DNA of 63,112 nt, the filler included, from Dugesia japonica (Eukaryota): assembly GCA_001938525.1 (NCBI GenBank). It is 5 parts of 5 records of this genome, joined end to end, with 100 filler letters (N's around TTAATTAATTAA, not from the genome) between each part and the next. Parts side by side here need not be neighbours in the genome. Positions count along the whole stretch, not along the records: positions 10,806 to 23,820 come from MQRL01600624.1; 4 more parts are not named here. One strand, 5' to 3'. The notes beneath the pieces were generated by a model. The model was not told where the DNA came from and ran no database searches. It saw only the letters and a list, made by a program, of their open reading frames with translations. Each line of letters begins with the position of its first letter. Position 1 is the first letter of the stretch. This document shows, in pieces, positions 2,620-58,997 of the stretch. The translations under genes and the position numbers were made by a program.

Positions 2620-3175
2620 TATTATTGGAATGAAAATAATAATAATAATGATGCAAGTGATTTATTTTATCCATTAAAAACGAATTCAGCACGATTGAGG
2701 TTGATAAATAATATGAAACAAAACGACAATTATTTGTGTGATGATAGAAATAACAAATATTATTTTAAATATGGAGATGATGATAATTCAACATTTGATT
2801 GAAGAAATAATTTGTCAAATATGAAAACATTTGACAATACAAATCAGATTGAGATGGCATCTTAATTTCGAGTAAAGAATTTAACCGATTTAGCTGGAGT
2901 CGATATGATGAGTATTGTTGAAAGACACTGAAATGAAAGATTAAATAAAAATATCGTAGAAGATTCTCATCATGATTATATGAAATTAGGGAAATATTCA
3001 ATCGATATCAGTGACAAGAATGAAAATAATTTCATCGATTTGATAAATATTTCTGATGAAAATTATTATTAAAATTATCAAACAGTTGGAGATAAAAAGA
3101 ATTTGAATGCTAATGAAAAATATTCAACCTCAAATTTGAATAATAATTATTCACAAATTGATATCCAATAATATT
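2620..3175 (+). pseudogene. Decayed copy of the Asn-rich coiled-coil gene family
   Basis: 2970-3070 matches 9650-9745 and 3106-3162 matches 5938-5993; contains in-frame stops. Confidence 0.6.
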
Positions 3176-5688: not shown

Positions 5689-6606
5689 ATGTTTAGTAAT
5701 GAGCCTGGCAGTAATCTCACAAAAGGTAGTGAAACCAAGAAATGTCAATCAGAAAATGAAAACGTGAAACAGAATAATTATGATAATGAAGAACAAATTA
5801 ATAATTTAGAATCAGAAATATCAACTTTATCTCGAGGACAGAGTTCATCTTATACAGATGATTCTCGTATCACGAGTTTCCGTGATATACAAACAAATTA
5901 TACAAATTATCCAACAAGTTATGATAATAAGACTTCTAATGCTTATGAAAAATATTCTAGTTCTAATTTGAAGAATAATTATTCACAAATTGATAATCAA
6001 TTATATTCAAATAGAAATTATAATAACGATTTATCGAAATATAAAAATAATTATTCAATCAATAAATGTGAAAATTGTCAAAAGTTGATCTTACAAAATG
6101 ATAATGCTCAATCAGAAATTAGAAAATTGAAACTGGATATTGATAAATTGAATAAACAAAATGAATCAACAATGACAAAATTCAATAAAGAAATGAAAAA
6201 ATTTGAAACAGAAATGAACAAGTACAAATCAGAAATTAATGAAAATAAATCAGAAAAAATAGAATTGAAATCTAAAATCGATCAATTAACATCAAAAAAT
6301 AGTAATTTTCTGTCCCCATATGATCAATTATTTTACTCAAATAACAATTTGCACAGTGAATATGAAAATACTAAACTGAAAATGAACAAAGCTGAACAAG
6401 AAATTAAAAAATATATATCAGAAATTGAAAACGTGAAACAGAACAATAATGATAATGAAGAACTAGAAAAACAAATTAATAATTTAGAATCAGAAAATAA
6501 TTCGATATTTGATTCGTTTTATTCTGGAACATCAAGATTGCCAAATAATAAAAATAATTCAGGAATGAGCTACGGAAATTCTAAATCTAAATATAAGAAA
6601 AAGTAG
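5689..6606 (+). CDS. Asn/Lys/Glu-rich coiled-coil protein with CxxC (NKCENCQK); unknown function
   Basis: 305-aa open frame in very AT-rich DNA with heptad-like composition; paralogous segments at 9397-10705 and 2620-3175. Confidence 0.6.
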   Translation: MFSNEPGSNLTKGSETKKCQSENENVKQNNYDNEEQINNLESEISTLSRGQSSSYTDDSRITSFRDIQTNYTNYPTSYDNKTSNAYEKYSSSNLKNNYSQIDNQLYSNRNYNNDLSKYKNNYSINKCENCQKLILQNDNAQSEIRKLKLDIDKLNKQNESTMTKFNKEMKKFETEMNKYKSEINENKSEKIELKSKIDQLTSKNSNFLSPYDQLFYSNNNLHSEYENTKLKMNKAEQEIKKYISEIENVKQNNNDNEELEKQINNLESENNSIFDSFYSGTSRLPNNKNNSGMSYGNSKSKYKKK

Positions 6607-7954: not shown

Positions 7955-9360
7955 GGTAAATAGTGGCTCATGAGACCACTCACCCTCCGTCGGCAAACTG
8001 GGCTTAACTGTGACCTGGAATCAAATATACTGGGCTGAAAATTGGCCTGGTTTAAATATATAATGCTTTGAGACGCCGGGATCTTAGTTGATCGATCGAA
8101 TTTACATCCGGTTGAATCAATTGTGGGTCGTATTAACGACTTCGGAGAGCGACAAAGATATCGGGCGTGAACCGGCCCAGATCGCACGCTAGTAATTTTT
8201 TTCTCCTATCAACCGACCACTCCTCCCCCCGCTCCTGTGATACAGGCGTTTATCGCTAATCTTCTCTGGGGAGTCCGGGATCCGGATGGGGTGACGGATA
8301 TCGAGAACACGGCCCTTAATACTGACACAACTAATAATCAGTCCTAGTTTTGGTTGTTTTACCTAGAAATAAAATAAGTGTTTTCATCTTCAGTTATTTG
8401 TTGACTCTGCCTGTGAAACTATGTATTAGGAAGTTAATTAAAATTTTTTTTAATTTATTTTCGTGTAAAATTATGATAATACTCGTAACCAGATGTTTCC
8501 TTGTCAACTTTCATTTAATAATATGAGTGACCATGCTAATTCTATGTTTCTTATCTTAGATAATATCGGGCACAATGCAATCTTTTAAATATACTTTTAT
8601 TTTAGTGCATTCCTCATTAAACTGGTCCCTTGCCCCGACTAAGAAAGTTTCGGAAGATAGTGACGAAAAGGAAATGACCTAGGATCTGTATAAACTAGCA
8701 AAGAGGCGATGGGAGGCGGAGATCTCGACGGCCGAAGCCAAAGTAAAACGCTATAAGCGAAAATGTCTAATGTTTAAAGCGGAGATGGATGCCACCAAGA
8801 ATCAGGAGAGGGTGTGGAAGGCCCAAGTTGACAGCTTCGCCACAATTATTAAAACTTACCAGGAACGTGAAAATCAACTCGCCGAGAATATATTGAAGTT
8901 ACGGGCCACGATGCCTCTACAACCCCTCTTGATTGATAAAGGTACTCAAACCAATCGCTCCTGAGTGATCTCTGTTGTTGTGTTGCTGTTAATAAATCTC
9001 TTTATTTGTATCTTTTCGCTTTTACTTCTCCACTTTTGAACTGGGTTATTGTCAATTTAACTTTACTTTTGATTTAGTGCCACGAATTATTTTTCCCACA
9101 AGCCTGCGACGATGCCACCGGATAATGCGGCGCCTACTGGTAGAGAGGCATTTGAAACGAAAAACAAACCAAGCCCTATTGCGACACCTGGAGCAACGAA
9201 AGAAACTAATAAAGAAACTGGACGCAATAGTCAAGAAGCAGAACGACCTTGCAGTCCAAGTGAAGGCCCTAGAAGTCGAAAATAAACAATTATTAACAAG
9301 AAAAATTGAGTTCTTAAAACAATACATTGCGGATTTGTCGCGACAAATAGGCAACCCAAA
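7955..9360 (+). mobile_element. Internal fragment of a diverged family-X element (three-exon cassette, decayed)
   Basis: GC-richer island; ERQRYRA*TGPDR aligns with ERQAFYQWFGPNR (ORF 16899-17207); 8606-8964 and 9078-9360 are homologous to 17625-17979 and 18113-18495. Confidence 0.8.
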
Positions 9361-9370
9361 TTTAATTTAG
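9078..9370 (+). CDS. Element-borne basic coiled-coil (bZIP-like) exon, family X ORF3
   Basis: Starts at a tttag|TG acceptor; about three-quarters amino-acid identity to 18113-18495 by eye, with many synonymous differences. Confidence 0.55.
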
Positions 9371-9396: not shown

Positions 9397-10705
9397 ATGT
9401 ATCGTCTCGATAGACCAAAAGTAATAAGAAGTAATAATAACGATACAAAAGATTCGTTTTATTCTGGAACATCAAGATTGGGAAATAATATGAAACAACC
9501 TGATAATTATTATAGTAATAACAAAGATATCAAATATAATCGAAGCGACAAAATCTATGATAATTCCATATTTGATTCATCAAGAAATATTGTTGAAAAA
9601 CAAAGAAATGAAATATTAAATACAAATTTCGTAGATTATTCTCATTGTGATGATATGAAAATAGGGAATCATCCAATCAATATCAGTGATAAGAATAGAA
9701 ATACTTTTATTGATTTGATAAATATTTCGGATGAAAATCATTATAGATCTAATTTGAATAAAAATAATTCAAAAATTGATAATCAATCAAATTTATGCAA
9801 ATATAATAATAATAATAATAATAATTATCCAATCAATAAATGTGTAAATTGTCAAAAGTGGATTTTACAAAATATTAATGCTCAATCAGAAATTGATAAT
9901 TTGAATAATCAATACAAATCGGAAATTAATATTTGTATTTGAATATTATCCGATTAAATAAAGATTATGAACCACAAATTAGGGAATACAAAACAGTAGT
10001 TGACAATTACAAATCAGAAATTGATGGAAATAAATCAGAAAATAACAAATTGAAATCAAATAATAAATTTTTATCAAATGAACTAGACAAACTGAGTAAA
10101 AACATTTGAGATTTGAAATTAGAAAATAAATCTTTGCGTAATTTGAAAATTGAAAAAGAAACTCTAAAATTGCAAATCAAGAAATATGAATCAGAAATAA
10201 AGAATTTAAACACACAAATCAATAATTTAGAATCAGAAAATAATAAAATTTTGAATAATTTGAAAATTGAAAATGAAAATCTATTATCGCAAATTAGTAA
10301 AAATGAATCAGAAATAAAGAAATTAGAAACGAAAATCAAAAAGTGTGATCTTGATAAAGAAAATAAAAATAATAATTGTCAAATCAACAGATATAAATCA
10401 GTTATAAATAAATTCACACCAGAAAAAGAAGGAACAAGATGTAGAACTGCTGAATCGAATAAACACAGTAATAATTTGTTTAATCAATACGAAAATGAAG
10501 AAATTAATAATTTAGAAAATAATAAAATTTTGAATAATTTGAAAATTGAAAATGAAAATCTAAAATTACAAATTAGTAAAAATGAATCAGAAAAAGAAAA
10601 ACTGCAAAGCGAAATCGATCAATTAAAATCAAATAATGAAAATCTGCAGTCCAAACTTGATGATTTGTATAAATCAAAAAATCAATTATTTGGCAAATAT
10701 GAAAA
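9397..10705 (+). pseudogene. Second copy of the Asn-rich coiled-coil gene (interrupted, runs into contig end)
   Basis: ORFs 9397-9942 and 10113 onward share DSFYSGTSRL, NKCxNCQK and QINNLESENN with 5689-6606; in-frame TGA at 10107. Confidence 0.55.
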
Positions 10706-10805
10706 NNNNNNNNNNNNNNNNNNNNNNNNNNNNNNNNNNNNNNNNNNNNTTAATTAATTAANNNNNNNNNNNNNNNNNNNNNNNNNNNNNNNNNNNNNNN
10801 NNNNN
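10706..10805. other. Artificial contig-joining spacer (N44-TTAATTAATTAA-N44)
   Basis: Exactly 44 N + TTAATTAATTAA (stops in all six frames) + 44 N; an identical structure recurs three more times. Confidence 0.97.
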
Positions 10806-11929: not shown

Positions 11930-14900
11930 CTAAATATTTAAATTAATTATAAGTTGACTAACTTAAAAATAATTTTTATTTAATAGCATTATTTTAATTA
12001 AAGGAACATAATTTTAAGAAAGCAAGTTTATTTTCAAATTTTAATTTAGCTAAAACAATTATTGAATATTATGAGAAATAAATTTAACAAGAAACAATAA
12101 AAAATATACAAGGCTGTAAAGTCGCAAAATTCTCTTTAAAATTACCTCATCTATAAATTTAGAAAAGAAATTAATACATTTTTTAAAACAAATAAAATTT
12201 TAAAGCATGTATAATTTTTATACTGAATTGATTAATCATTTTAAATTTATAAGTATTTATTTTTATATAAATATGAAAGTTTGATTAGATTAATCATAAT
12301 ACTCTGAATTTTGTTATTTGGTAGATTTTCATTGAAAATGTTTAAAAACTCAGTTTGTTTAAAAAAACGTTTTACACTATTGTAAAGTGATGTTTGTATG
12401 TAGAAAAAGAATGGTTTTATCATATTACAAACTTTGAAAACCTCAGATTTTTATAGCTTATTATAGCTTTAATTTTGAAATTATATTTTCTTAATTAAAA
12501 TTTTAAATTTCAGATGTTCTTCAAATTGGTTAATTTGTATAATTGNTATTTTGTATAAAAAACAAAAAGTTTTTTAAGAATAATTGGTATTTAGAGAAAA
12601 TATTTTTTTAAATGTAGCGTTAACTTACTAAATTATTTTCCTTTAAAAATATATTATGAATTTAATTACCACATTTGTACTGAGACTAAATCTCACATAA
12701 CGCGCAATTAACTCCCGCGTTTTCCCATTTATATTACACTTAATTCCTAATTAAGAATGAACTTTAAATTGCGGAATCAGTCTAACTTCGAAATTCTCTA
12801 ATAGTATTAAATACATTTTGTTGAATTTCCATGAATTTTGGTCTTTTTTTGAATTTCTTGGTTTTGTCACAACTCGAATGCTAAGAGTGTGATTCATGAG
12901 AACCACGGATATTTATGGATGTNTCACATTTGTCTTCAAAGATATCCTAGTGACTCTGCATCTCTTACAGAGTTGACGAAATTCTTTCTGTAGGGTTAGT
13001 GATTAAATCACTAGCTCGTCTTACTATTGCTTAGACATAATAATCCAAAAGTGCTTGGCTCAGTACTTCACTTATCTTTTAATGGGCGCAGAAGTTTAAA
13101 ACTTACGTTAAGCATAAACTAGCTACACATAATTTGAATAATGTTGGGATCCTGAGAGCTTTCACGATGCTTAAACGATCAAGTTATTTATTACATTAAT
13201 ATTTCAATGTACAGACTAAAAAATCAGTTAAAAAATGGCAAACATATGAAATATCCGTCAAAAAAAGATTTTGAATGAAGTCCATGTCTGGTGACTGAAA
13301 ATTCGTAGTAGCATCCGCCATTTCGAAAACAAACAAAATAAGAGTTGTCTTTAAATAGCACTAGAAAATAATCTGTCTTCAACTCAATATGTTTGAAAAT
13401 CTATCTTACTTCTTTCAACAGCTGCTGTTATCACATAAAATTCATGAACTCATATGTATTAATAACTCTATCTGAACTCAACGAAAGATGAATGGTTACT
13501 CAGTAACCCATATTCCTCTCTTAACTTTATACTGGTTAGAACTATATTGCTGATTGGAGATTCATTCATACCTGGAGAACAAACTCTCTGTTTGTAAATG
13601 ATCCTCTTAGCAAGAAAGAAGTTCGTAAATGTCGACTTAGCAAATTTTTATCAGAAGCTCAGATACATATAGTTATCTGGTGTCAATACTCAAATAATTA
13701 CTGCTATAAGAATTTGAATTCTCTGGCTTTCACCATGTTAAATTATTCACAGATAAAATTTATTTTTATTATTTTTAAAGGTAAATTGTGTAAATAAATA
13801 AAGAAAATAGAATAAATTATTGCAAGAAGTGTATACATTATTATAATTATTAGCCGCTGCTTTATTTTTCCTAGTTTTAATCTGTAAATATTTATTAATA
13901 AGTGATAAGTTATAAGTAAATTCAGTGAAAAATTTATTCTATAACAAAATAGTAACATTAAAGCATTTAATTGTCTTAATTATTTTCTTCCTTTTGTTGG
14001 GGTAAAAAACGCCCGCTAAACGGGAGTAAGCTGAAAAATTAAAGCAACGGATAATAAGCACGGGACCACAATAATCACCGNNNNNNNNNNNNNNNNNNNN
14101 NNNNNNNNNNNNNNNNNNNNNNNNNNNNNNNNNNNNNNNNNNNNNNNNNNNNNNNNNNNNNNNNNNNNNNNNNNNNNNNNNNNNNNNNNNNNNNNNNNNN
14201 NNNNNNNNNNNNNNNNNNNNNNNNNNNNNNNNNNNNNNNNNNNNNNNNNNNNNNNNNNNNNNNNNNNNNNNNNNNNNNNNNNNNNNNNNNNNNNNNNNNN
14301 NNNNTGAAATTCGCTGAAAAATCTATTTTATCCGGATAACTTTGCTCCAGGAAATCGGAAAGAATCGGGATAAAAAAATGAAAAGAGCACATTACGGTGC
14401 AACTGAAATTATAAAAAAGAAAAACGTACCACCTTCCAGAAGGGTACCACAAGACTTTTAAGATCCGGCCAATAGAAAACCTGAAATTAAAAATATAACA
14501 AAGACCCAAAAATCATGTGGTCTGATAAAAATAGCTGCCAATAGTAGCACCAAAATTCAGAGAAAATTTTAGAAAATCAGCACGAGAACCAATGGAAGTA
14601 GAAAAAAGCTGATCTAAAAATATCAGCAAATCGGGGCATAGTTGGGGTGTAAGTCAAACCCTATGAAAGGAACCTGCAAATTTAGAATAATATAACTTTT
14701 TGAGAGAATTCAGTAAAACATCTGACTCCTAAACTATAATTTGTGAGGATATTGAATCGAAGTAATCATACAACTTATACTATCCTCGGCCAATCTCAAA
14801 ATCAAACAGTTAGTCAAATCGGAGAAATTACTTTTCCATTTTTAAAAAAATTTCAATTCAGAAACTCCATTACTTTCACGGAAAGGAAAGAAGGAATCAT

Positions 14901-16898
14901 AGTGATCCCTAAACGTTCAGTTCCTCAACAGAATAAAAATAAAACAGAAGTAATTTGTCTCTCCAATAGACTACTCTACATTCGTGCTAATCTTCCGTTG
15001 CAGAAAACCCGTTAATTGAAGTAAAATTTTATTCTAATTCNNNNNNNNNNNNNNNNNNNNNNNNNNNNNNNNNNNNNNNNNNNNNNNNNNNNNNNNNNNN
15101 NNNNNNNNNNNNNNNNNNNNNNNNNNNNNNNNNNNNNNNNNNNNNNNNNNNNNNNNNNNNNNNNCTATTAAGTAAAAGGGATTAATTCCATTTTTAGAAA
15201 TTTTTGATTTCATAATCAATATTGTTTAACAGTTGTTGCAATTAGATTTATAGGTAACTTCCCGGCTATTTTTAGAAATAATTATGTTACCATAAATAGC
15301 CCAACCACAGTAATATTTTAAATGATCTGCCAATGTAGATTTAACATCGATCTATTTTTAGTAATTTTCCCCTCCTGGGCAGTCAACAAATTACCACAAG
15401 TGTAAATTTCTAAGCTATCTAAACAGCCATGTTATCTCAACAATGTATGAAACAGACTGATGTCAATTCCCAGATAAAATATATATAAATGATTCTTTCG
15501 ATTGAATTTAGAAAGAAAAATAACTGTCTATCACACACGGCGTTGCCGGAATTAACAATTAGCGACTTAGTTCCAACTCGGCATAAAATTCGTAAGCTGA
15601 TCAAATCACTCCATGGAAACAGAAACGTAAATCCAGCGGTGAACATCTAATATAATTTAGCTGTCACTCATCACACACGCATGCATGCACCCCGGACACA
15701 CCCACAGTGTGCATCACACATCTACTACCACAATAAAAATAAATCGAGTACAATGTTATGACCTTGAACAGTAACCAGGGGCAACCCAAACCCTCGCAAT
15801 TTAAATAGACATAATTTTGAAAAAATCCACTATGATTAAATTTTCACTCCTAATTCCGATAATCTAATATCATCACAAGTCGTTCAGGCCGGTATCCAGC
15901 AATCGATAATAAATTCATTTTGAATCGCTAAGTAAACAATTACAAGAATTTACCTATATTAGGTATGGGTGTTGCTTATCATTCATCTAACAAATTGAAT
16001 AAAAAAAATGTGGTTTTGGTGGTAGAATATTGCGCACGATAAATCATTTAAAATATGTTTGCTGATTAATATAGCGTAAAATGGTAACAACGTGGCATTC
16101 CATAAATTAGAGCCCAACACTCTAATTTTTCATCATTTTCTGGGATTTTTCGCATGGCTGATTTATAAATAAGATCGAAGCTATTGAATAAAACAATAGA
16201 GAAGTCAATACTGGCATCGGTAACTCTCCAGGAAATTATTGAGTTTAATATATGAGAAATCACCGTTTTGATTTACGCGTTTTTTGGAGGAACTCAATTT
16301 TTAATTATAATTCGTAACGGCTAGGATTTCCGAATTAACTTCTGGAGATAGTTAGGTGATGGGAAAAACATTACCATATTTATTAACTTCCGAATTTTTC
16401 TGCTTAATTTAAAGTAAAATAGGTTCATTTGTTTTGATAGATCATCCAGTCNNNNNNNNNNNNNNNNNNNNNNNNNNNNNNNNNNNNNNNNNNNNNNNNN
16501 NNNNNNNNNNNNNNNNNNNNNNNNNNNNNNNNNNNNNNNCTCTCGCACGGGGTAATCGAACATCCCGACGACACGGATTTAGCGTGTCTCGCAGAAATGT
16601 TTCCTCTACCTACTCCAGTGGATCTTGATGAGGAGTGAACTTACTAGACAAGGAAAACCATTGCTGACCCTAGTTCGCCTGAATAAAATATAATCGTCCT
16701 CGTGACTTATCTGTTGTTTTGAAAATCGGCTCGTAGAGTTGAATTACTATTATAACTATTCGTTGATTTTTTAAAATTTTTTTGTTGTTGTCAAAAAAGT
16801 ACTTGTTATTGTAGACACAGCTAAATGGATCACGTATGGGAACTGCTATGCGATCGCCGCACGGGGCGTACCATATTTAAAAGATATAAGAACCCAGC

Positions 16899-17207
16899 AT
16901 GACCGTAACGCAGGTATCTATAACAGATTATTCTAACATGCCCAGTGAAGATGCAGATAATGAAAGAGAGGTAGTCGCTGCAGAGCGTCAAGCTTTTTAC
17001 CAATGGTTTGGTCCAAATCGTATCCAAGAAGTACTAAATCGGACCACTGGCTTGGATCCAATAGTTAATCAGTCCATTAGTCAGTGGCGGGATGGGCCGT
17101 CATTGTCGCCGGTGTCACTCACCCACCTTCCCAGAGGTACTAGATTCTCTCTAGACATCGGTAACACTCTGTGGGATCTACGAAATCAAGCTAGTGGTGG
17201 CATCTAG
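16899..17207 (+). CDS. Family X ORF1 (hypothetical)
   Basis: Open frame homologous to the decayed 8060-8200 region; candidate acceptor tgtag| at 16814. Confidence 0.4.
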   Translation: MTVTQVSITDYSNMPSEDADNEREVVAAERQAFYQWFGPNRIQEVLNRTTGLDPIVNQSISQWRDGPSLSPVSLTHLPRGTRFSLDIGNTLWDLRNQASGGI

Positions 17208-17624
17208 AAAATGCAGAACCCACTTCCTGACCATCTATGTTACTAGTGTGTCAGTATCATGATTTTCATAATTCGAATACATGTTTGTGTGTCTATTAGA
17301 TATTTTCTTTTANNNNNNNNNNNNNNNNNNNNNNNNNNNNNNNNNNNNNNNNNNNNNNNNNNTGATTTTCATAATTCGAATACATGTTTGTGTGTCTATT
17401 AGATATTTTCTTTTATCGAGGGCTCTTCAGCCGTTACCTATGTACATTTCAATATTTTCATTGTTATGGGCTTTTCTGCCATTACCAAAAGCTTCCCCTT
17501 TTTTGTAGAAACCGACCAACTATGAATATTTAATAAACTATAACAAAAAGAATTAATTAATTATATCTTTTGTTTAGGTTACATAAATTTCTAAATCTTG
17601 CTCGCGTTAATGTGTATCTTTTAG

Positions 17625-17979
17625 TGCATTCTTCATTAAATCGCCTTGCGGCCCTTACCAAGAAAGTGCAAGATAACAGCAAGGAGCGCAAGATGACATG
17701 GGACCTGGATCGATTAGCCAAACGTAAATGGGAGGCGGATACAGCCAACGCCAATAGTAAGGTAAGCCGCTACCGAAGGAAATGTGTGGCTTTCAGAAAA
17801 GAAGTCGAAGGCTCCCATGCACAAGAGAATGAAAGGGGCAAGTGGAGTCACTGGTTGACATGATCCGGTCCTACCAAGACCGAGAAAATAAACTGATGAA
17901 TGACGTTTTGAAGTTGAAGGCTTCCATGCCACTCGAACCGTTAATGGTAGAGAAAAACACTCAGACCCATAAGAATTAA
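17625..17979 (+). pseudogene. Family X ORF2 coiled-coil exon ending in KxTQT (one frameshift near 17835)
   Basis: tttag|TGCATTC acceptor shared with 8606; the C-terminus MPLEPLMVEKNTQTHKN* aligns with MPLQPLLIDKGTQTNRS* (8770-8964). Confidence 0.6.
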
Positions 17980-18112
17980 ACTGAGGGCTCATCTTTGTTA
18001 ATAAATCTTGTAGTTTGAACTGTCTTATCGATTTACTTTTCATTGTTTTCTTTATGTGGGTAGTCATTTGCCAATGTGAAAATTCTATTAACATTAACAT
18101 TAATTTCTTTAG

Positions 18113-18495
18113 TGCCTCGTATCCATCTCCCGAACAGTCTTCGTCGGTGCCACCGCATTATGCAACGACTTCTTATCGAACGGCATTTAAAGCGTAAAGT
18201 AGACCGAACAATGCTTAATCAATTATCGCAGAAGAACAGACTGATAAAAAAGTTAGATCTCATCGTAAAAAAGCAGAACGACCTTGCGACTCAAACAAAG
18301 GCCTTGGAAGCCGAGAATAAGCAATTATTGTTAAGAAAAATCGAGTTCTTAAAACAATATATTGCTGATCTGTCCCGTCGAATAGGTCACCCATCTGTAA
18401 CACAATGGGATGAGGAGGACGACATCGCCGCTTTCAACTTCGCGGTAACGGAACCAGATCAGTGGTTAGATCCTGGGGCGCTAGATCTGCTTTAA
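18113..18495 (+). CDS. Family X ORF3, basic coiled-coil (bZIP-like) exon with acidic tail
   Basis: Intact frame from the tttag|TG acceptor; conserved with 9078-9360; followed by AATAAA. Confidence 0.6.
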
Positions 18496-18754
18496 ATTTT
18501 TTTTTATAAAATAAAATGTCTGTGTTCGAATTTAGAATTTCTTATTTTCAACAGTAACAATAAAGGAAAATCATTGAACCCGAATATAAAGGTTTACTGG
18601 TGCGTACATTCCGTTAAGAGTAAGGTCAACCGCCATAAACTGAAAACCTACCCCAAGGGCGGTAGGGTAAATTTTTGATAGGGTTCCCCTGAGGGCTGTT
18701 TTTTCCCCAGCCATCGTGTTGCGACACTCAACTCAGGTGGGACCCCAACACTTT

Positions 18755-19120
18755 TATTTTAAATTTCTTTCATGATTAATACATAAAACCTTAATGAAAC
18801 TCTTTAAGAAATTTTAACTTGTCCATATTTCTGTAAATAACTCTTTCTTACCTGTTGTATAACCTCTACCTTCTTTCATGGATATTTTCCTTTATCAATT
18901 ATGGGTCATTGTATCTTTCCTTGTTCTTTGACTGTACTTCGTTTTTCACAAATACTTTTTAACAAATTTTGAAGGCATAACGAGTTGAGTATCATTCTAC
19001 ACTGGTCAACCTCTCTTCAACCTCTTCGTGATCGATTCATCGTTCTCTTCAAATCTCTTTACCTTACACCAAGACTACTTAGATAGTTTTAATCGTCTTT
19101 TGATGTGTGGCGTTCATCAT
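18755..19120 (-). mobile_element. Gypsy integrase C-terminal remnant
   Basis: Minus strand MMNATHQKTIK and VKNEVQSKNKERYNDP*LIKENIHERR resemble IKIETRNKSQDKFA*PYQIIERIHERR at ~31700-31780. Confidence 0.55.
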
Positions 19121-21489: not shown

Positions 21490-22920
21490 ATCTTCTTAAA
21501 AGCGATAGTATTTATGCATCAACCTAATAACTATAAATTTATTTAATAAAACAAGGTGAAAGAGAAACTAAAAATTAATTAAAATAATTTATTTTAATTC
21601 CTATTGGTTGAAATTTTTCCTAATTATTTCTTTAAAACCCTTTTCTTAAGAAACTTTCAAAGTTTTCACATTTCTCATCAATCACTTTCCATTTTCTCTT
21701 TGTACTGCACACGGTGTTTGTGAATTTTCTCAATTATTCAATTAAAACCTAAAAATTTGTCTTGGCTATTATTTCCTTTTTTCTACTTTGATAATCTTCT
21801 ACTTTGAATTCTCTATTAATAATCACTTCTGAAATAGTTTCTTCAGTTCTTTCTGAAACGTCTGACATGTATCATTTTCTCAGCTGATTTTCTTTTAAAA
21901 TACGATCTTAATCGAGCTCTTTCCAATCATCTTCTGCTTAGTTGGGTTTATCGTAAATTCTATTTCCAGTAAAATGTCTGCCAAATCTGTCTTCTTTCTC
22001 TTTTAAAATGTTGTATTAATTAAACCTCGAATTGTCCTGAACAATCACTCAATTTGTCCGTTTGCATTGTAATGATATGGACTTGAAAAGCAAAGTTTAA
22101 TATTCAGCTTCTGTACAAACTCTCTCATAACTTTGGATTCCAAGGCTTTCCCANNNNNNNNNNNNNNNNNNNNNNNNNNNNNNNNNNNNNNNNNCCGCTT
22201 CTCAAAAAAAGCTTTTCGTACTGTTTCTTAGTCTTGTCTACTCAACACTATACGAACCCGATATTTACTGATCTGGTCGATTATTTCAGGAATACATTTT
22301 TTCATCCACTTGTTTCCCGCATTAGCCCATATATTTCTGTGAACATGACTTCGGACAAATTGGTAAATTCTTAATTTAATTATATTCTTTTAATTATATT
22401 CATTGTCTTCTCTTTAATTGCTGTACTCATTACTTTGGTATTCAGACAAACTTCACAACTACGAAGTATTTCCTGTATTGGTCTCCATAGATTCTCTGCA
22501 ATATGTCTGTCTCTTATGTACCCTAACATCTTTTCAACTCCTGCATGACATAATAATGTCGTGTACTTTGTTATCCAGAAATTTTGTTTTCGTGATTAAG
22601 TTTTTTCTTCAGAAATGTTTAATTCTTCTTCTTTTTTCTTTTCTATTGTTTGCAGTACTTTTGTTTTAATTTTTTCTTTCTTAGCATCTTCATGTGACAT
22701 TTGACATTATACACATACCCTACATCTTGGTCTAGATAATATATATGCATTACCATGTAGAATTTCTTTTCCATATTCTAATACCATGTACAAACTACTA
22801 AGATAATTAATCCATTTCTGGAATTGTAATGTAATTGGTTTCTTCGTGGTCATCATGAAACATAAAGCTTTATGATCTGTCATAATAGCAAACTTTCAAC
22901 CGCACAAGTTATTAGATATT
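21490..22920 (-). mobile_element. Gypsy LTR retrotransposon 3' fragment (RNaseH-integrase-PPT-LTR), related to 27930-32045
   Basis: Minus strand encodes SSPYHYNANGQIE and a TEICGL-type integrase core; purine tract aagaaaaggg at ~21640 is followed by LTR-like aagaaataatta...ccaatag. Confidence 0.75.
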
Positions 22921-23820: not shown

Positions 23821-23920
23821 NNNNNNNNNNNNNNNNNNNNNNNNNNNNNNNNNNNNNNNNNNNNTTAATTAATTAANNNNNNNNNNNNNNNNNNNNNNNN
23901 NNNNNNNNNNNNNNNNNNNN
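23821..23920. other. Artificial contig-joining spacer
   Basis: N44-TTAATTAATTAA-N44. Confidence 0.97.
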
Positions 23921-24698
23921 TAAAACCTTTGCAATATAATAAAAATCTTGGTATACAAGCTCAAAAATATGCGGAAGTACTTGCTAAAAAAGATGTCATG
24001 GAACATAGTAAAAACGAAGATCGAGATAACGCTGGAGAAAATTTAGCATTGAGCATGATGGAAGTCACTGATTACAAATATTCTGGTAAATCATGTTTAC
24101 ATTTGATAATTTATTTCTTATTGTCTATAGGGTTGGGAGCAAGTGTAAGTTGGTATTCGGAAATNNNNNNNNNNNNNNNNNNNNNNNNNNNNNNNNNNNN
24201 NGGGAATCCGGCAACTGGTTAATAATTCTTATCAATTATAATTCTTAATTTATTCAGGTCATTTTACTCAGCTCATCTGGGAAGATTCAAAAGAAGCTGG
24301 TTTTGGAAGAGCAATGAATAAAGAATCTAAAATATGGTATATTGTCGGTCGTTATCAGCCACCAGGGAACTTTGTAGGAAGCTATAAAGAAAAAGTATTG
24401 CCTTTACCAAAAGGAAGTTAGCTCTTTTCATCAATTTATGCTTATATAAAATTACTAAATAGAAAAATGGGACACAATTCCAATTGTTGAAGAACGCTTA
24501 GAAGAGCTCCGAACTATTGAATATACTAAAGCTCGTAAACATATATTAGATAAATGGTCGGCCGAATGGGAAATGGGAACAGATAACGGTGTATATTTTT
24601 GCAATATTACTGAAACATTTACAACTCCAACTGGATCAAAATATACTGGAACAAAGAGTTTCTCAGAAGATCCCAGTGAATTAGTATGTATCAAATAA
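23921..24698 (+). CDS. CAP/SCP (GLIPR2/GAPR-1-like, venom-allergen-like) protein, 5' truncated
   Basis: Exons 23921-24085, 24131-24217, 24258-24416 and 24463-24683 with 45/40/46-nt GT-AG introns; motifs HS..., GENLA, WYSE, GHFTQLIW, VGRYQPPGN. It either ends at TAA 24698 or splices on from GTATGT at 24684. Confidence 0.9.
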
Positions 24699-28119: not shown

Positions 28120-31100
28120 TGGTGGCAATGGTCAATACCGATTCCAATACAGAGAGGTTATTGCTGAAAGATTTTTGCAGAGGAGATGACATTGAAAAAT
28201 TCATCAAGCAGTGTGAATTGTATTTTGAAGAAGAGATTAGTCTCTTGTATGTTAGATGAAGATTTGTTGGAAGAATTTGCAAAAACTTTGAAAAAAGTTA
28301 AAGGATTTCAGGGTCATTAACGTATGGCATTTAAGAAAGAGAAAGATGCTATCAAAGATTTTCAAAATTTGATTAACTACAGGTGTGGAAATGAAAAGAT
28401 TCAAAATTATTTTAAAAATGTAAAAGATTTAGTTGAAAGATTATTTAAAAATAAAGATTTTACTTAAGAAAAAATGGTAGCAAAGATGCTAGTATATTGT
28501 TCAGATAAAAAAAAAGTTAAAAAAGAAGTAACTTTGAGGAAACGAGAGAATATAGAAGAAATTAAAGAAACAATAACTTTAGTAGATTGACTAGAGAAAA
28601 ACCGAGATCGAGTTGATGCAGTTAGAGTTACAAATCGAAATTATCAGAAACCTGTAAATCATACAGTGAATAGACATGTATAGCAAAGAAAAGAAAAATA
28701 AAATATCGAATGTTGGTCATGACATAAGATCGGTCATACTAAAGCGAGTTGTCCGACAAAAAAATTGGAAGTGTGCTAGAATTGTCATAAAACAGGACAT
28801 ATAAGCTGAGATTGTTCAAATAAAAAACCAACAAAATATTTTGGATGTGAAAAGATTGGTCATATTAGAAGGTTATGTCAAGAAGTAAGGTGTAAACGAT
28901 GTGGAAATGGTGGACATAGAGCAGAAGAGTGCTACACAAATTTGAAAGCGAAAAGAACAAGTGAGAAATTTATGACTGCAGTAAGATCAAGAAACCGATA
29001 TAATCGAGTACATGCGATTGCACATGAAGATGTCCGTATAAACGATGGATATGAGAAAGTATATGAAAGTGATTCTGAAAGGCATTAACCAAACGCCAGA
29101 GCTCCACCAGTAGAGTAGTTGGTTGGAGCCATCCATTTTTAAATGAAGTTAGTAACTATCATCAAGGGATCAAAAAGTGAGATGAGATAGGAAAATTTAT
29201 AGAAAAAGTATACAGGTTCTTACAGAGGGAAAATTTTGTGGATGGTAGAAAAGTAGAATGGTTTGGAACAGATGAAGCATATAAGAAAACAAATATTTCG
29301 TAACATAAATGGCAAGGCAGATCAAGTGCTACAGTATCAATTCAAGGAAATAAAGTCGAATGTCTATTAGATACATGGGCTAGAATTAACGTGATGAATT
29401 TGAGTTGTTTTAATAAATTACGAGAAGTAAATTTAAAAATGAGTAATGAAAAATTGCTTTGTGCACATTGTAGTACACTTGAAATTGTTGGGAAAGTTAG
29501 AACTGGAGTGATAATTGATGAAGTTTGCGAAGAGATTACTTTCTTAGTTGCTGAAAAAGTAACACCAGATATGAGAAATAGATATTCAAAAGATATTTGG
29601 ACAATTTAGTACACTTGAAATTGTTGGGAAAGTTAGAACTGGAGTGATAATTGATGAAGTTTGCGAAGAGATTACTTTCTTAGTTGCTGAAAAAGTAACA
29701 CCAGATATGAGAAATAGATATTCAAAAGATATTTGGACAATTTCGACAGACAATTGAATGCAGTAACGAAAGGACAAGCCTTTCCTAGGAATAATGTCGA
29801 TGAAATGCTGGACAAGTTAGATGGAGCCAAATATTTCAGTTCAATAGATTTAGGTAATGCATACTTTCAGGTAGAGCTCGAAAAAGAATTTCAAGAAAAA
29901 ACGGCGTTTTCAACAAAGCATGGACAATATTGTTTTAATAGAATGCCATTTGGCATAGCAAAGGCACCAGGGACATTTCAATAGATGATGACGAAAGTGG
30001 TAGGCTGAATCAATGGAGCCATGGTTTATCTTGTTGACATTTTGATATTTACGAACAATAAAGAACAACACTATGAAGTCATTGAAAGAGTATTGACGGA
30101 AATAATGAAGGCTCGACATAGAATTAATCCAGAGAAGTATCAGTTTCTTCAAAGCGACATCAAGTTTCTTGAACATATAATTAACAAAGATGGAGTCAGA
30201 ACTGATCCATCTAAAATAGAAGCACTGAGAACATTTGGCAAACCTAACTGTGTGAAGAAGTTTCTTAGGAAAATGTAATTATTATAGAAAGTTTATAGAA
30301 CACTACGCAAGAAAATCAAGGATCTTAGAGCAGTTGTGTAGCAAGCCAAGCAAAAAAAAATTAGAATGGACAGATGAAATAAACGATATTTTTGATGGTC
30401 TAAAAAAATTTCTAATGACTGCACCCATATTGTGTTTTTCAGACATAAACAGTATTGTCACAGAACGATAAGGAAGGAAGAGAAAGAGTTATTGCCTATG
30501 GATCACACTCAATGACGAGTCATGAAAAGGGATATTGCATCACACGAAAGGAGTTTATTGTTTCTACATGCACTTTAAACACTTTTTGTATGGTAGACGA
30601 TTTACTCTTAGAACAAATCATAAAGCGCTAACCTTCATGATGACAACGAATAACTTGCGTCACAATTTCAGACATGAATTAATTATCTGAGTAGTCTAGA
30701 CATGGTTTTGGAATAAAGAGAAGAAATTCAACATGGAATGCAGATATGTTATCTAGACCAAGATGTGAGGTATGTGTAAAATGTCAAATGTCACATGAAG
30801 ATGCAAAGAAAGGGAAGAATAAAACGAGAATAAACATGATAGAAACAGAAAAAGAAGAGCAATTATACATTTCTAAGGACACAGATTTAATCTAGAAAAT
30901 AAAAATTTCGGAGGACAAAATACTTAAGACAATAGAAGAAATACATAAATTAATATGTCATGCAGGAATTAAGAAGGTGTAAGAATACATGAGAAACAAA
31001 TAAATTGCGAAGAACTTGTGGTGCCGAATACAGAAAATAGTTCGTAGTTGTGAAATTTGTCAGAAGGTTAGTGACGACAGCAACTAAAGAGAAGACAAAG

Positions 31101-31855
31101 AAATTAGAAGCTACCAATCTGTTTGAAGTCATATTCATAGATATATGTGGGCCAATGCAAGAAGCAAGTGGACGAAAAAAATACATTCTTGGAATAATCG
31201 ACCATTTTAGTAAAGATCTGGTTCTTATACTATTGATTAGACAAGACGATAAAACAATACGAAAAGCTATTTTTGAAAAGTGGATATTAATATTTGGATG
31301 TCCAAGAGAAATAAAACTCGATTGTAAAAAAGCTTTTAAATCCAAAGTTATGAGATAGTTCGCTCTGAAGTTGGATATTAAACTTTGCTTTTTGAGTCCC
31401 TATCATCATAATGCAAACAAACAAATTGAATGACAGTTCAGGACGATTCGAGATTTGATAAATGCAACACTTCAGGAAAGAAAGACAACAGATTGGGCAG
31501 ATCTTTTATGGAAAGAAGATTAGCAGAGAAAAATGGTATGAGTCACTTCAGGAAAGAAAGACAACAGATTGGGCAGATCTTTTATGGAAAGAAGATTAGC
31601 AGAGAAAAATGGTATGAGTCAGACGTTTCAAGTCAAACTAAAGAAAACACTTTAAATGAGAATACAAATAGAGAATTTAAAGTGGGCGATTTTGTACTCA
31701 TTAAGATAGAAACAAGAAATAAAAGTCAAGACAAATTTGCTTGACCTTATCAAATAATTGAGAGAATTCACGAAAGACGGAATGCAGTACAAGGAGAAAA
31801 TGGACCGCCATTAGAATAAAATGTGGAAAAACTTAGAACATTTTTAAGAAGAGGA

Positions 31856-50356: not shown

Positions 50357-51621
50357 CAGCGATGGATCTAGGGAATTTTCATTGGGGGCGATATGAAAAT
50401 AATTACGTTATTTATTATGTAATCGACCGGAAATTAAATTTTTAGTTTAAAAAAAGTAAAACTAATGATTTTTTTACATTTACAAAAATAAAATTTTAAT
50501 TAATTTTCACGGAAATCCAGTAGAAAAGTCCATTGTTTAAATATTTTTTTTAAATAAAATTTAATATTTTCAAAATGAAGAAATTTAACTAAGGCTTAGG
50601 CCAAAATGTTTTTTTAAATTTTATTAGGGTTAAAAATTACAAAAAATTTAATTTTCTTAGACCCCAATTTTCGATTTTATCTTCTTCTGGAGTTGTGATT
50701 AAATAAATTGAATAAATCAATCACAACTCTAGAAGAAGATTAACTCGAATATTTGGCGAAGTAAGTTAAATGTTTGAAAGTTTTAACCTTAATAAAATTT
50801 TAAAAAACATATTTTGATCTAAGCTTTAGTTTATTTTCTAAATTTTGAAAATATTTAATTTTATGATTCAGAGATCAATGGTTAAAAATTTTAAACAAGT
50901 GAATAATTACCAAATAAGTAACTGTCACAATAAACAAAATTTTTTTACAAATAATTCAAATTTTCATGGGAATCCGGGTGAACAGTCCAGGTTTTTCAAA
51001 AATATTTTTTATGCTCAGATTTTAAATACTTTTATACAAATCTGTTAAGAATTTGATGGGGGTCATTTTTGGTTTTTTCAATATTTTACAGACTTTTCGA
51101 AAAATAAAAAGTATTTCAAATTTTATCATTAACCCATCTATTCAATAGAGAATTTTATGCTGAGTTAGAATAACACGAGTAAAAATCTCCAATACGTATT
51201 TTAGAGGATATTAAATGAAAATACCAATAAAAAACTAACAAGTACAATTTCTATATAAGGTTAATTTTTATTATAAAATTTATTTAATTCATCATTTTTA
51301 GTATTTAATTGTTTTTACAGTAGATAGATAGATGATCCTAAATTACTAAACCAACATTTCAAACTAAATTTCTAAACCACTTTGTAATATGGGGATGTGG
51401 TTTAGTGCGCCACAATTTATCTACTTTATTTTTAATCTACAATTATTTTTATCGTATTCATTTCAACTTTTTGATACAAAACTGTTTTTAATTATTCTTC
51501 TTTACATTTTCATTCTACTATACTAATATTCACGTGGATAGTCGCTCCTTATCATTATATAACCTTTTCGAAAACTGGTTATTGGGACTGATCGCCCCCC
51601 CTCACCGTGGATTCGTCGTTG
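50357..51621. mobile_element. Non-autonomous hAT-like DNA element inserted in the Gypsy fragment
   Basis: Imperfect TIRs CAGCGATGGATC / (rc) CAACGACGAATC with subterminal GGGGGCGAT; degraded 8-bp TSD CCTAAATA / ACTGAATA. Confidence 0.65.
50560..50850. repeat. ~280-bp imperfect palindrome (foldback)
   Basis: Arms 50679-50700 and 50719-50740 are near-perfect reverse complements, and the symmetry extends outward. Confidence 0.8.
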
Positions 51622-53335: not shown

Positions 53336-54187
53336 AAAATTTATTTATTATAAAATTTATTACAGATTTTATTTTGGAGTTAATGTTATTTACAAAAAAA
53401 TTAATATCTACTGTCGCGGAAAAATATCGATGATATATTGCGGTTATCAATGAATGAAGCTCTGGTCTAGTTTATGAATAAAATAAGTAAATAAATTTGT
53501 AGGTAACAATGGTCTAAAAAATAAACTATTAATCTTATAAAGTAATAAAGGTTTATTTAATCTTTGTTATACATAAATAATTTTACTTTCTGTACAAATT
53601 TTCTGAAGAAATTTGAATTTAAATGTATTTTATTAAACGATTTAATTACTGTCAATTTAAAAAACGATGCGTAAAAAATAATTTATCAAACACGTGAAAA
53701 TATTTTTGTATTTTTGATGTTGGTTAGCACAATACTGCTTCAGTATTACTTGATGAATACCCATAATTGATTGAGGTATGCAAATTAAACCCATTTTTAT
53801 CCATAAACGAAGTGTTTATTNNNNNNNNNNNNNNNNNNNNNNNNNNNNNNNNNNNNNNNNNNNNNNNNNNNNNNNNNNNNNNNNNNNNNNNNNNNNNNNN
53901 NNNNNNNNNNNNNNNNNNNNNNNNNNNNNNNNNNNNNNNNNNNNNNNNNNNNNNNNNNNNNNNNNNNNNNNNNNNNNNNNNNNNNNNNNNNNNNNNNNNN
54001 NNGAATTATTTTCACTTTTTTCTTTATAAATATAAATTTTACTAGATATTCGGATATTTTTTTTAATAATTTTAAAATAATAATACGCGTGGAAGATATT
54101 TTCTAACATTGTTAAAATTAGATTCAATTAAACATTGAATTAAACATAAGAATTTATTTTAATCTAAATTTAACTAAATTTATTTAG

Positions 54188-55848
54188 ATGAAATTAGAAA
54201 TGGATCTTTCAAAAAGCTATTTCATCCAGATCGATTGGTTACTGGTCCTGAAGATGCCGCAAGTAATTTTGCTAGGGGATTCTTTACCGTTGGAAAGCTC
54301 TTATTAGGAACAATTAATAATGAAACTAGGAGGCTTCTTGAAAATAGTGATTGTATTCAAGGTATATTTTTGTTCAGATCTTTAGGTGGAGGAACTGGAG
54401 CTGGATTAACCTCTGCAATTTTTGACGGTTTGGCTGAATATCCAAAAATTCCTAAAATTGAAGTTCCAATATACCCTTCTCCGACTCTTTCAACAGCAAT
54501 GGTTGAACCTTATAATTGCCTTTTGGGGGAGCATTTTTGTATGGAGGATGTTGATGTTGGACTTCTATTAGATAATGAAGCTTTATATGATATATGTTCC
54601 AAGTATTTAACAATAAATTATCCGACATTCAGTACAATAAACCGTCTTGTTGCTCAGCTTTGTAGTTCAATAACTGCATCTGTCAGATTTGAAAGTGTCA
54701 TGAATTGTGATATTACCGTACTTCAAACTAATTTAGTTCCTTATCCAAGAATACATTTTCCACTTGCTAATTTTGCTCCAATTTTATCTCCTGAAAAGGC
54801 TCAGCATGAAGAATTGTCTGTAATGGAATTAACACGTTATGTTTTTGAAAGAGAAAACCAAATGATGAAAGTTGATCATTCTTTTGGACGTTTTATGTCA
54901 TGTAGTTTACTTTATAGGGGTAATATTAGTCCTTATCATGTTTATCTAGCTTTGACTGAAATTAAAAGAGATAAAAGTATAGAATTTGTTGATTGGTGTC
55001 CTACAGGATTCAAAGTTGGGATAAATGTGTGCCCCCCTACAACAATACCAGCTAGTCAAATAGCACAAACAACTAAAAATGTAACGATGTTAACAAACAC
55101 TTCAGCTATTGGTCAAGCATGGCAAAGATTAACTCACAAATTCTATTTGCTTTATTCTAAAAGATCTTTTGTACATTGGTTTGTTGGTGAAGGTATGGAA
55201 GAATGTGAATTTACAGAATCACTTTATAACATAAGTGCTTTAGTAAAAGACTACGAAGAATCTGCAATGGATGCTAAATACGAAGAAGGAGAAGGGGTAG
55301 TTGATACATCTGCACCAAGTGCTCCAGCGACTAATGGTAGTCTTAATCATGACAATGCTGGTGCTCAAGGACAGGAATATGTTGAAGTAACATCTAGTCA
55401 AAGAGGTAGTTTTGAACAAAAAGATGTTCTATCTAAAAGTGGAATAACTAACGATAATGAAGAGAAGGAAGAAATACAAGAATCTAGAAGAGTGGATTCC
55501 GAAGTAGAAAGTGATAGTAAAAATCCTGTAAGTGAAACAAGAGCTGAAGAAATAGAAACTGAAAAAGTCGAAAATGAAGATATTGGTAAAAGTGAAAATG
55601 ATAATGTAAATGAAGAAAATGAAGGCGAAAATGTAGAAGTAGATAACAACGAAGACAATCAAAATGATATTGATCCAGAAGTTGAAGATGAAAATGAAGA
55701 ATTAGAAACTGAGGAAATCAATGATCTTGGAGGAGCTATTGATGAAACAAGTAATAGTAGTAATAAGATATTTTATCAAAGTGGCAGTGATTCATCTGAA
55801 AAGTCTAACAAATTACCAATAAGATTTTATCAATATAATAAACAATAA
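54188..55848 (+). CDS. Divergent alpha-tubulin with long acidic C-terminal extension (last exon; N-terminal ~75 aa not visible)
   Basis: Exon starts at the phase-1 acceptor in D76 (DEIRNGSFKKLFHPD); motifs GGGTGAG, DNEALYDIC, QTNLVPYPRIHFPL, FVDWCPTGFKVGIN, FVHWFVGEGMEE are alpha-type. Confidence 0.93.
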
Positions 55849-57869: not shown

Positions 57870-58997
57870 ATTTTTCAATTTCCTTTTGATTTTTCAGAGA
57901 TTGACTATATAAAAAAGTAGAACTTGTTCATAAATATTTGAAAATGATTGACCCCATTAACCTCAGAAAAAGCATCTTCTATTGACAACTCATGCCGGTG
58001 GTTTAGATTCGGATATTTATGGGTTAATCTTGTTTCTACTCCGGATTTTCTTCCTAACATAATACTGGCCCGTCGCTTGAAAATAATATTAAATGGTGCT
58101 TTAAATAATTATCATCAAAAATATTTTTTCCAAACATTTTAAGAGACATTCTGTTATTGTTTTAGCTATTTAATCCTGCAATTCAATTAAATGAGGATCT
58201 TTTATTTTATCTGTTTTGCATTTATAATAAATAAAAAGTACAGATTTTTTACTTAAAGTGGTAGATTCATCTATTATAATAGATAAATTTCCTTGAATTT
58301 TTAATATTTGTTGACAAATTTTGGATTTCATTTGAATTCCTATATGATTGATTATTTCTGTAGATTTTAATCTAGATCGTAATCCATGAGCTATAATAGA
58401 TCCATTCATTTCTTGCAGTTTTAATAAATCAAAATGATCAGAATATGGGCGATCATGTTTACCAATATAATACTCAGTTCTAAAACCTTTACTGGTGCTA
58501 AAAATTTCAGAATCATTCATCTTATCTACAATAACTGCGAGCCTTTGCTTGTTTGCTTCTTTTAAGATTTTCTCAGCTGTTGTATAGGAAAAACGTTTAC
58601 AATGTTCATACCTTTTTTCCGCAAAGTTAGTTATGAAGCTTTATACTTTCGAAAAGCTGATACCATAGTGCCACTCCATTCTTTTGAGATGCTTACTCCC
58701 TGCGTTTTTAAAGGTCCTAGAGGATGGAAAGCCAAATAAGTCAGACATCCTAATTTTCCGGAATCGCATTTTAGCCAAGTATATTTTTTCTTTTCGAAGA
58801 TAATATCTGAAGTCCAAATACTCAGCCAATTTATTATTAGTGGTTCTTCTTCTTTTTGAAAATTTTCTGTTGATGCTGATAGAATGTTCATTTATTTTTT
58901 TCTTGTTTTCTAGAACTAGTACGTCTTCTTTTTGTTGCGTTTTAAGTTTTTTTTCGAAGATAATATCCAAAGTGGGTTGTTTACGTTTTTCTCTCAT
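57870..58997 (-). pseudogene. hAT transposase remnant (KIAA1586/ZNF862-like)
   Basis: WLKCDSGKLGC, YYIGKHDRPYSD, SIIIDESTTLSKKSVL and DGASIMLGRKSGV; frameshifted. Confidence 0.85.

Follow-up and report, generated by a model that had tools for sequence, protein, structure and literature searches.

The stretch of DNA analysed here (the window, 63,112 nucleotides from the planarian Dugesia japonica) is AT-rich (~27% GC), eukaryotic and laden with repeats. It holds a unit with LTR-like ends and a promoter-like block, and inside this unit lie a short open frame, which we call W, and two coding exons, X and Y, of which X ends in a candidate LC8-binding motif (Table 1). Relatives of both exons are found elsewhere in the window; we refer to them as copy A and to the exons inside the unit as copy B.

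Table 1. The LTR-like unit, its contents and its relatives; positions count along the window.
Feature	Position	Strand	Remarks
LTR-like unit, very probably a solo LTR	13995–18750	+	nominal 4,756 bp including 486 N; starts TGTTGGGGT, ends ACCCCAACA
Target-site duplication CTTT, left	13991–13994
Target-site duplication CTTT, right	18751–18754
Promoter-like block	14469–14668	+	CCAAT boxes at 14469, 14538 and 14589; TATA-like box at 14662
Open frame W, short, inside the unit	16890–17207	+	candidate phase-1 splice donor after 17136 (copy B only)
Exon X, copy B	17625–17979	+	coiled-coil ORF; putative phase-1 acceptor, AG ends at 17624; frameshift at ~17828–17832; motif at the end
LC8-type motif E-K-N-T-Q-T, copy B	17950–17967	+	stop at 17977–17979
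AATAAA after exon X, copy B	18000–18005	+	in a 13-nt block common to copy A (8991)
Exon Y, copy B	18113–18495	+	open ORF, basic region and long helix (bZIP-like); putative phase-1 acceptor, AG ends at 18112; AATAAA at 18510 and 18559
Exon X, copy A (fragment, diverged relative)	8606–8964	+	putative phase-1 acceptor, AG ends at 8605; in-frame stop at 8680–8682
LC8-type motif D-K-G-T-Q-T, copy A	8935–8952	+	stop at 8962–8964
Exon Y, copy A	9078–9365	+	likeness to copy B stops at ~9365, where unrelated AT-rich coding repeats start
Left-end fragment (terminus and promoter), another family member	937–1580	-
Left-end fragment (terminus and promoter), third family member	1950–2579	-

The ends of the unit are of the TG...CA (TGTNR) type and form a perfect 9-bp inverted pair (TGTTGGGGT / ACCCCAACA), and together with the CTTT duplication they would be expected by chance at a joint rate of ~6e-5 per 10 kb; the duplication is seen at one insertion only. 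The left terminus is common to three copies, the alignments of the two minus-strand fragments starting exactly at 1580 and 2579, and all three (3/3) carry three CCAAT boxes and a TATA-like box 0.5–0.7 kb inside, after which the similarity stops; the TATA-like box reads TATATAA in the two other copies and TATGAAA in copy B. Since the unit combines TG...CA ends and 9-bp inverted termini with a 4-bp duplication and with a CCAAT/TATA promoter that recurs in two more copies, it is, judged on its sequence, very probably a solo LTR. Its family is multi-copy: one DNA run yielded 4148 contigs on the region 16540–19000 (2461 bp), and at the right end of the unit the summed contig depth (not to be read as a copy number) falls from 43,449 to 477. 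Most relatives have two patches in common, the final 170 bp and 17868–17950, where the exon X helix ends. The motif-bearing ORF thus sits inside a multi-copy unit with LTR-type ends and a promoter, which bears out the transposon origin ascribed to it in the first-pass annotation. The unit is interrupted by five N gaps, and 53 bp are repeated exactly on either side of one of them (17313–17362; the repeats lie within 17260–17415); this repeat is likely an assembly artefact, which would inflate the length of the unit. No PBS, PPT, gag or pol linked to the unit, gapped by N as it is, was seen within the window, and its conserved right end folds no better than shuffled sequences (z -1.56). Rfam gave 0 matches.

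The same genes could also be carried by a non-autonomous DNA element, Ginger-like or other, which would leave the reading of the LC8 motif unaffected. TGTNR ends are described as typical of both Gypsy LTRs and Ginger transposons, 4-bp duplications are found in the latter as well (PMC2836005), and neither pol nor a paired LTR is seen in the window. However, as characterised in the part of that paper drawn on here, Ginger elements have TIRs of 40–270 bp, a CCGG/CCGT duplication or RTATAY target and an integrase-like transposase, whereas the unit has inverted termini of only 9 bp, a CTTT duplication and no transposase match inside it, so that a Ginger transposon was rejected. The promoter, ~0.5–0.7 kb from one end, and the poly(A) signals, ~0.2 kb from the other, likewise speak against a DNA element of this sort, which appears improbable.

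Elsewhere in the window, and separate from the unit, decayed RT and integrase remnants at 29718–31355 (+) and 22383–22595 (-) belong to another LTR retrotransposon family (two copies, ~70% alike, in opposite orientation). Two adjoining open frames at 58170–58997 (-) look by eye like a decayed DNA-transposase remnant, with no Pfam match at threshold, and a 310-bp self-complementary stretch (80%) at 50554–50864 is MITE-like. At 54178–55848 (+) lies a divergent exon of a tubulin, judged by eye to be alpha-type, whose acidic C-terminal extension runs to ~190 residues, and the frame at 23869–24222 (-) resembles a CAP/GAPR-1 domain by eye. A family of N/K/E-rich low-complexity coiled-coil ORFs (5689–6606, 9397–9942 and 10110–10757, all +; related DNA at 2913–3175) gave generic Pfam matches only; one of its members adjoins copy A at ~9365.

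In exons X and Y the coding signal reaches past the first methionine. Upstream of it, 12 of 22 residues are identical between copies A and B in exon X (pS 0.94) and 12 of 15 in exon Y (pS 0.91), and in all four cases (X and Y, A and B) the signal breaks off at a pyrimidine-rich ...TTTAG with TGC directly after it, suggesting phase-1 splice acceptors. Past the stop of exon X both copies have AATAAA, and copy B has it past the stop of exon Y as well. With putative acceptors on the 5' side of each and AATAAA on the 3' side of the stops, X and Y resemble terminal exons used as alternatives, where splicing is deduced from sequence, and since the promoter lies at the left of the unit, both would be downstream of the LTR promoter. 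Open frame W, which offers a candidate donor, has no homologue near copy A, and the regions upstream of exon X show no similarity between A and B (best tblastx E 0.95). Three RNA runs (13.6, 11.6 and 10.5 million records) gave 49, 6 and 2 aligned reads, respectively; none was at least 95% alike, none fell over the bin with the motif and none contained a splice joint.

Substitutions between the two copies of exon X (pN 0.31 vs pS 0.84), with a coding signal of this extent, mark it as a real gene that was formerly under purifying selection. Neither copy is intact upstream of the motif: copy A has an in-frame stop, and a frameshift in copy B splits the motif-bearing frame from the first half of the ORF. 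Both copies in the window are probably relics that make no such protein. Conservation is higher in exon Y, with 70 of 93 residues identical and substitutions that again indicate purifying selection (pN 0.16 vs pS 0.82); it encodes a basic stretch followed by a long zipper-like helix, with a sub-threshold bZIP_1 match (E 0.045) in copy A and an acidic tail in copy B.

Models of exons X and Y each consist of a single long helix. For exon X we ran AlphaFold2 on the copy A stretch 8683–8961 with a three-row alignment, which predicted a helix over residues 2–76 and a coil tail over residues 77–93, with pLDDT 47–54 for the last 13 residues of copy A. Hydrophobicity at the a/d heptad positions is 0.81, a value matched by none of 5000 shuffles, and two prolines, present in both copies, separate the helix from the motif. 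The motif had been expected to sit beside a coiled coil, and it does indeed lie in a predicted unstructured tail after a predicted coiled coil of ~75 residues.

Searches for relatives of these proteins were negative. Among longer proteins exon X gave 60 candidates, of which 0 passed, and near-length proteins contained no homologue; exon Y gave 6 candidates among near-length proteins, again with 0 passing. The sole HMMER profile match among 1.84 billion representatives, a tardigrade repetitive coiled coil, was rejected as generic (7 matched stretches, without the motif). Also rejected was the one metagenome locus, L001, whose match covers 29 residues and runs antisense to a bacterial gene of great length. 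Pfam returned only sub-threshold coiled-coil families and the ESM Atlas only low-recognition leads; nothing matched in PDB sequences, phage genomes or viral contigs, and an exact look-up of four window proteins in a protein collection found none (0/4). Similarity to Gag, capsid or pol was looked for in exon X and none was found. As a separate observation, eukaryote-type LC8 genes occur on contigs filed under prokaryotic genomes (L002, L003 and L005 on one 20.7-kb contig, and L004, L006 and L007), and are probably contamination of prokaryotic assemblies.

The LC8-type motifs at the ends of copies A and B are at the sites first noted, in the same register of homologous frames, and in each copy three residues separate motif and stop. 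For the composition of these ORFs, K/R-x-TQT would occur by chance at 3.2e-5 per site and at 6.8e-3 anywhere in 210 residues. A six-frame count over the window found 5 matches against a shuffled mean of 0.9 (maximum 3, 30 shuffles); two of the five are the homologues in copies A and B, and since four of the five lie at most 6 residues from a stop, proximity to a stop means little alone. The K-x-T-Q-T residues had been described as kept while their neighbours change. This is true in both copies (2/2), but it does not rise above the protein background: 59 of 114 exon X codons specify an identical residue (52% identity), as do 9 of 17 in the 17-residue tail; of the 111 five-residue windows, 24 show four or more identities and so are as conserved as the motif; and at 52% identity four given positions would be identical by chance with p ~0.07 (two copies, both broken). 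Changes flanking the motif are conservative (I/V, D/E, R/K). With only two copies and an equally high background across the exon, special conservation of the motif is not upheld, and on the sequences compared its conservation does not exceed that of the remainder of exon X. A second TQT triplet, at 18289–18297 (+), falls within the helix of exon Y in copy B and is absent from copy A; such triplets therefore arise incidentally, and this one is probably of that kind.

For the fit to LC8 ligands we used the rules of PMC6607443 on anchor, flanking-residue preferences and disorder. As given in the sections drawn on here, a TQT anchor at -1/0/+1 is required and is insufficient by itself; position -3 should hold a large or positive residue, K/R there favouring binding, and -4 a polar or acidic one; an aromatic residue at -2 and proline anywhere in the site are disfavoured, and +2 should be non-hydrophobic, preferably P/D/E (PMC6607443). 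Both copies have the anchor, K at -3, D/E at -4, G/N at -2 and I/V at -5, with no proline or aromatic residue in the site; their +2 residues, N in copy A and H in copy B, are non-hydrophobic and outside the preferred set. In the pre-selected peptide sets of Tables 1–2 of that paper, which we counted by eye, all seven exact K/R-x-TQT peptides bound (6 distinct sites, EKGTQT among them) and K/R at -3 was absent from all 18 non-binders that contain TQT; against this, N or H at +2 was present only among non-binders (POU2F1, KLK7). The description of the tail as a canonical LC8 ligand type thus holds at the level of sequence, with the TQT anchor, K at -3, an acidic residue at -4 and a predicted unstructured tail, and by these rules both tails are likely to represent functional LC8 sites.

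It could nevertheless be that the tail was kept because it packs back on the helix, binds another partner or holds a nucleotide-level signal close to where translation stops and poly(A) is added, with the match to LC8 ligands a coincidence. In favour of this, conservation equals the protein background, three of the four motif codons are identical in DNA despite synonymous sites being near saturation, and many TQT peptides fail to bind (PMC6607443, in the tables used). Against this, the chance of K/R-x-TQT within the last 15 residues is only 4.8e-4, the LC8 rules allow every one of the changes at -5, -4 and -2, and the tail is predicted to be unstructured. We regard an incidental motif as rather unlikely.

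Our preferred reading, to which we assign a probability of roughly 0.6, is that of an LTR-borne accessory protein held as a dimer by host LC8. The unit would be the solo LTR of a large Gypsy-type retroelement, with the LTR promoter driving a transcript in which an upstream exon is spliced in phase 1 to either exon X or exon Y, each with its own poly(A) signal. Two chains of the exon X product would pair as a parallel coiled coil, each continuing through a linker with prolines into a free tail, and one LC8 dimer would take both C-terminal tails as beta-strands in a 2:2 clamp, which would stiffen or stabilise the pair, an effect LC8 has on other coiled-coil partners. This clamp appears the likeliest arrangement because LC8 is viewed as a hub for dimerisation and not as an adaptor for cargo (PMC6607443) and because rabies P, Ebola VP35 and HPIV3 P engage LC8 beside their oligomerising domains (PMC8615749). 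If binding holds, a retrotransposon would be using the very hub that Drosophila needs for piRNA-guided silencing.

Dimerisation or particle trafficking had both been suggested as the purpose of recruiting LC8, and it is the former that our preferred reading takes up. Coupling of element particles or RNPs to dynein for transport would have a parallel in foamy virus Gag, whose interaction with LC8 via a coiled coil is tied to capsid traffic to the centrosome (PMC3705263). However, exon X is without Gag, capsid or pol similarity and is located in an LTR-like unit, and the hub role of LC8 argues in the same direction; trafficking is therefore unsupported and seems very unlikely.

An even less probable alternative is that the many dispersed LTRs made the protein as a sink or decoy for LC8, competing with a host silencing or apoptosis complex. 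It draws on Drosophila, where LC8/Cut-up, on which piRNA-guided silencing of transposons depends, dimerises Panoramix via TQT motifs (PMC7861614), and on the multi-copy nature of the family, in which each LTR would bring its own promoter. But the evidence for such an LC8-dependent silencing complex comes from Drosophila, expression in the three RNA runs is very low, and with LC8 highly expressed (PMC6607443) one site per chain would make a weak sink. One may go further and imagine a giant animal retrotransposon with a self-contained, alternatively spliced cassette placed downstream of the promoter in its LTR, which would turn every solo LTR into a small gene, and whose LC8-clamped coiled coil and bZIP-like helix jointly act on LC8-dependent silencing or transcription complexes of the host as a counter-defence; we consider this speculative and distinctly unlikely.

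The closest functional parallels to an LC8-clamped dimer come from viruses, for which LC8 capture via TQT motifs is well known, so that its use by a retrotransposon would be virus-style. Rabies P, Ebola VP35 and HPIV3 P (PMC8615749) and HPV E4 with DKQTQT (PMC6607443 Table 2) likewise belong to genetic parasites and carry a K-x-TQT-type site, placed in a disordered stretch beside a coiled coil. In contrast to them, the candidate site here belongs to a retroelement accessory exon, stands at the extreme C-terminus after the helix and comes without sequence similarity. Foamy virus Gag is a retroelement protein too, reported to interact with LC8 through CC3 (PMC3705263); it is structural, and the contact maps to a coiled coil, whereas the predicted site here is a TQT tail at the terminus. 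A further parallel to the proposed accessory protein is CERV, which the Gypsy-type element Cer1 of C. elegans makes from a spliced mRNA; it is lineage-specific and contains a leucine zipper and coiled coils (PMC10309623).

Among planarian elements, the Burro giant Gypsy-like LTR retrotransposons of a dugesiid host, longer than 30 kb and with a polyprotein of ~5,000 aa, likewise combine an AT-rich animal genome with high copy number, unusual size and accessory ORFs; these ORFs, however, are in the internal region or polyprotein, and none is described inside the LTR in section 7 of PMC6431247. That the unit belongs to Burro, compared by description only, is a lead only, and Burro supplements or Repbase entries may already annotate these ORFs. 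Our literature searches, which did not cover most subscription papers, found only host silencing and transport papers for a retrotransposon-encoded TQT ligand and nothing matching for a comparable gene cassette inside an LTR. The ORFs of MMTV sag and HIV nef also lie in the LTR and are reached by splicing; they are in U3, upstream of the LTR promoter. Exons X and Y would share with them LTR coding via splicing and differ in being downstream of the promoter block, and therefore a solo LTR of this family would be a complete transcription unit. Coding exons under purifying selection 3' of an LTR promoter would mean that solo LTRs, usually regarded as non-coding scars, can be dispersed genes.
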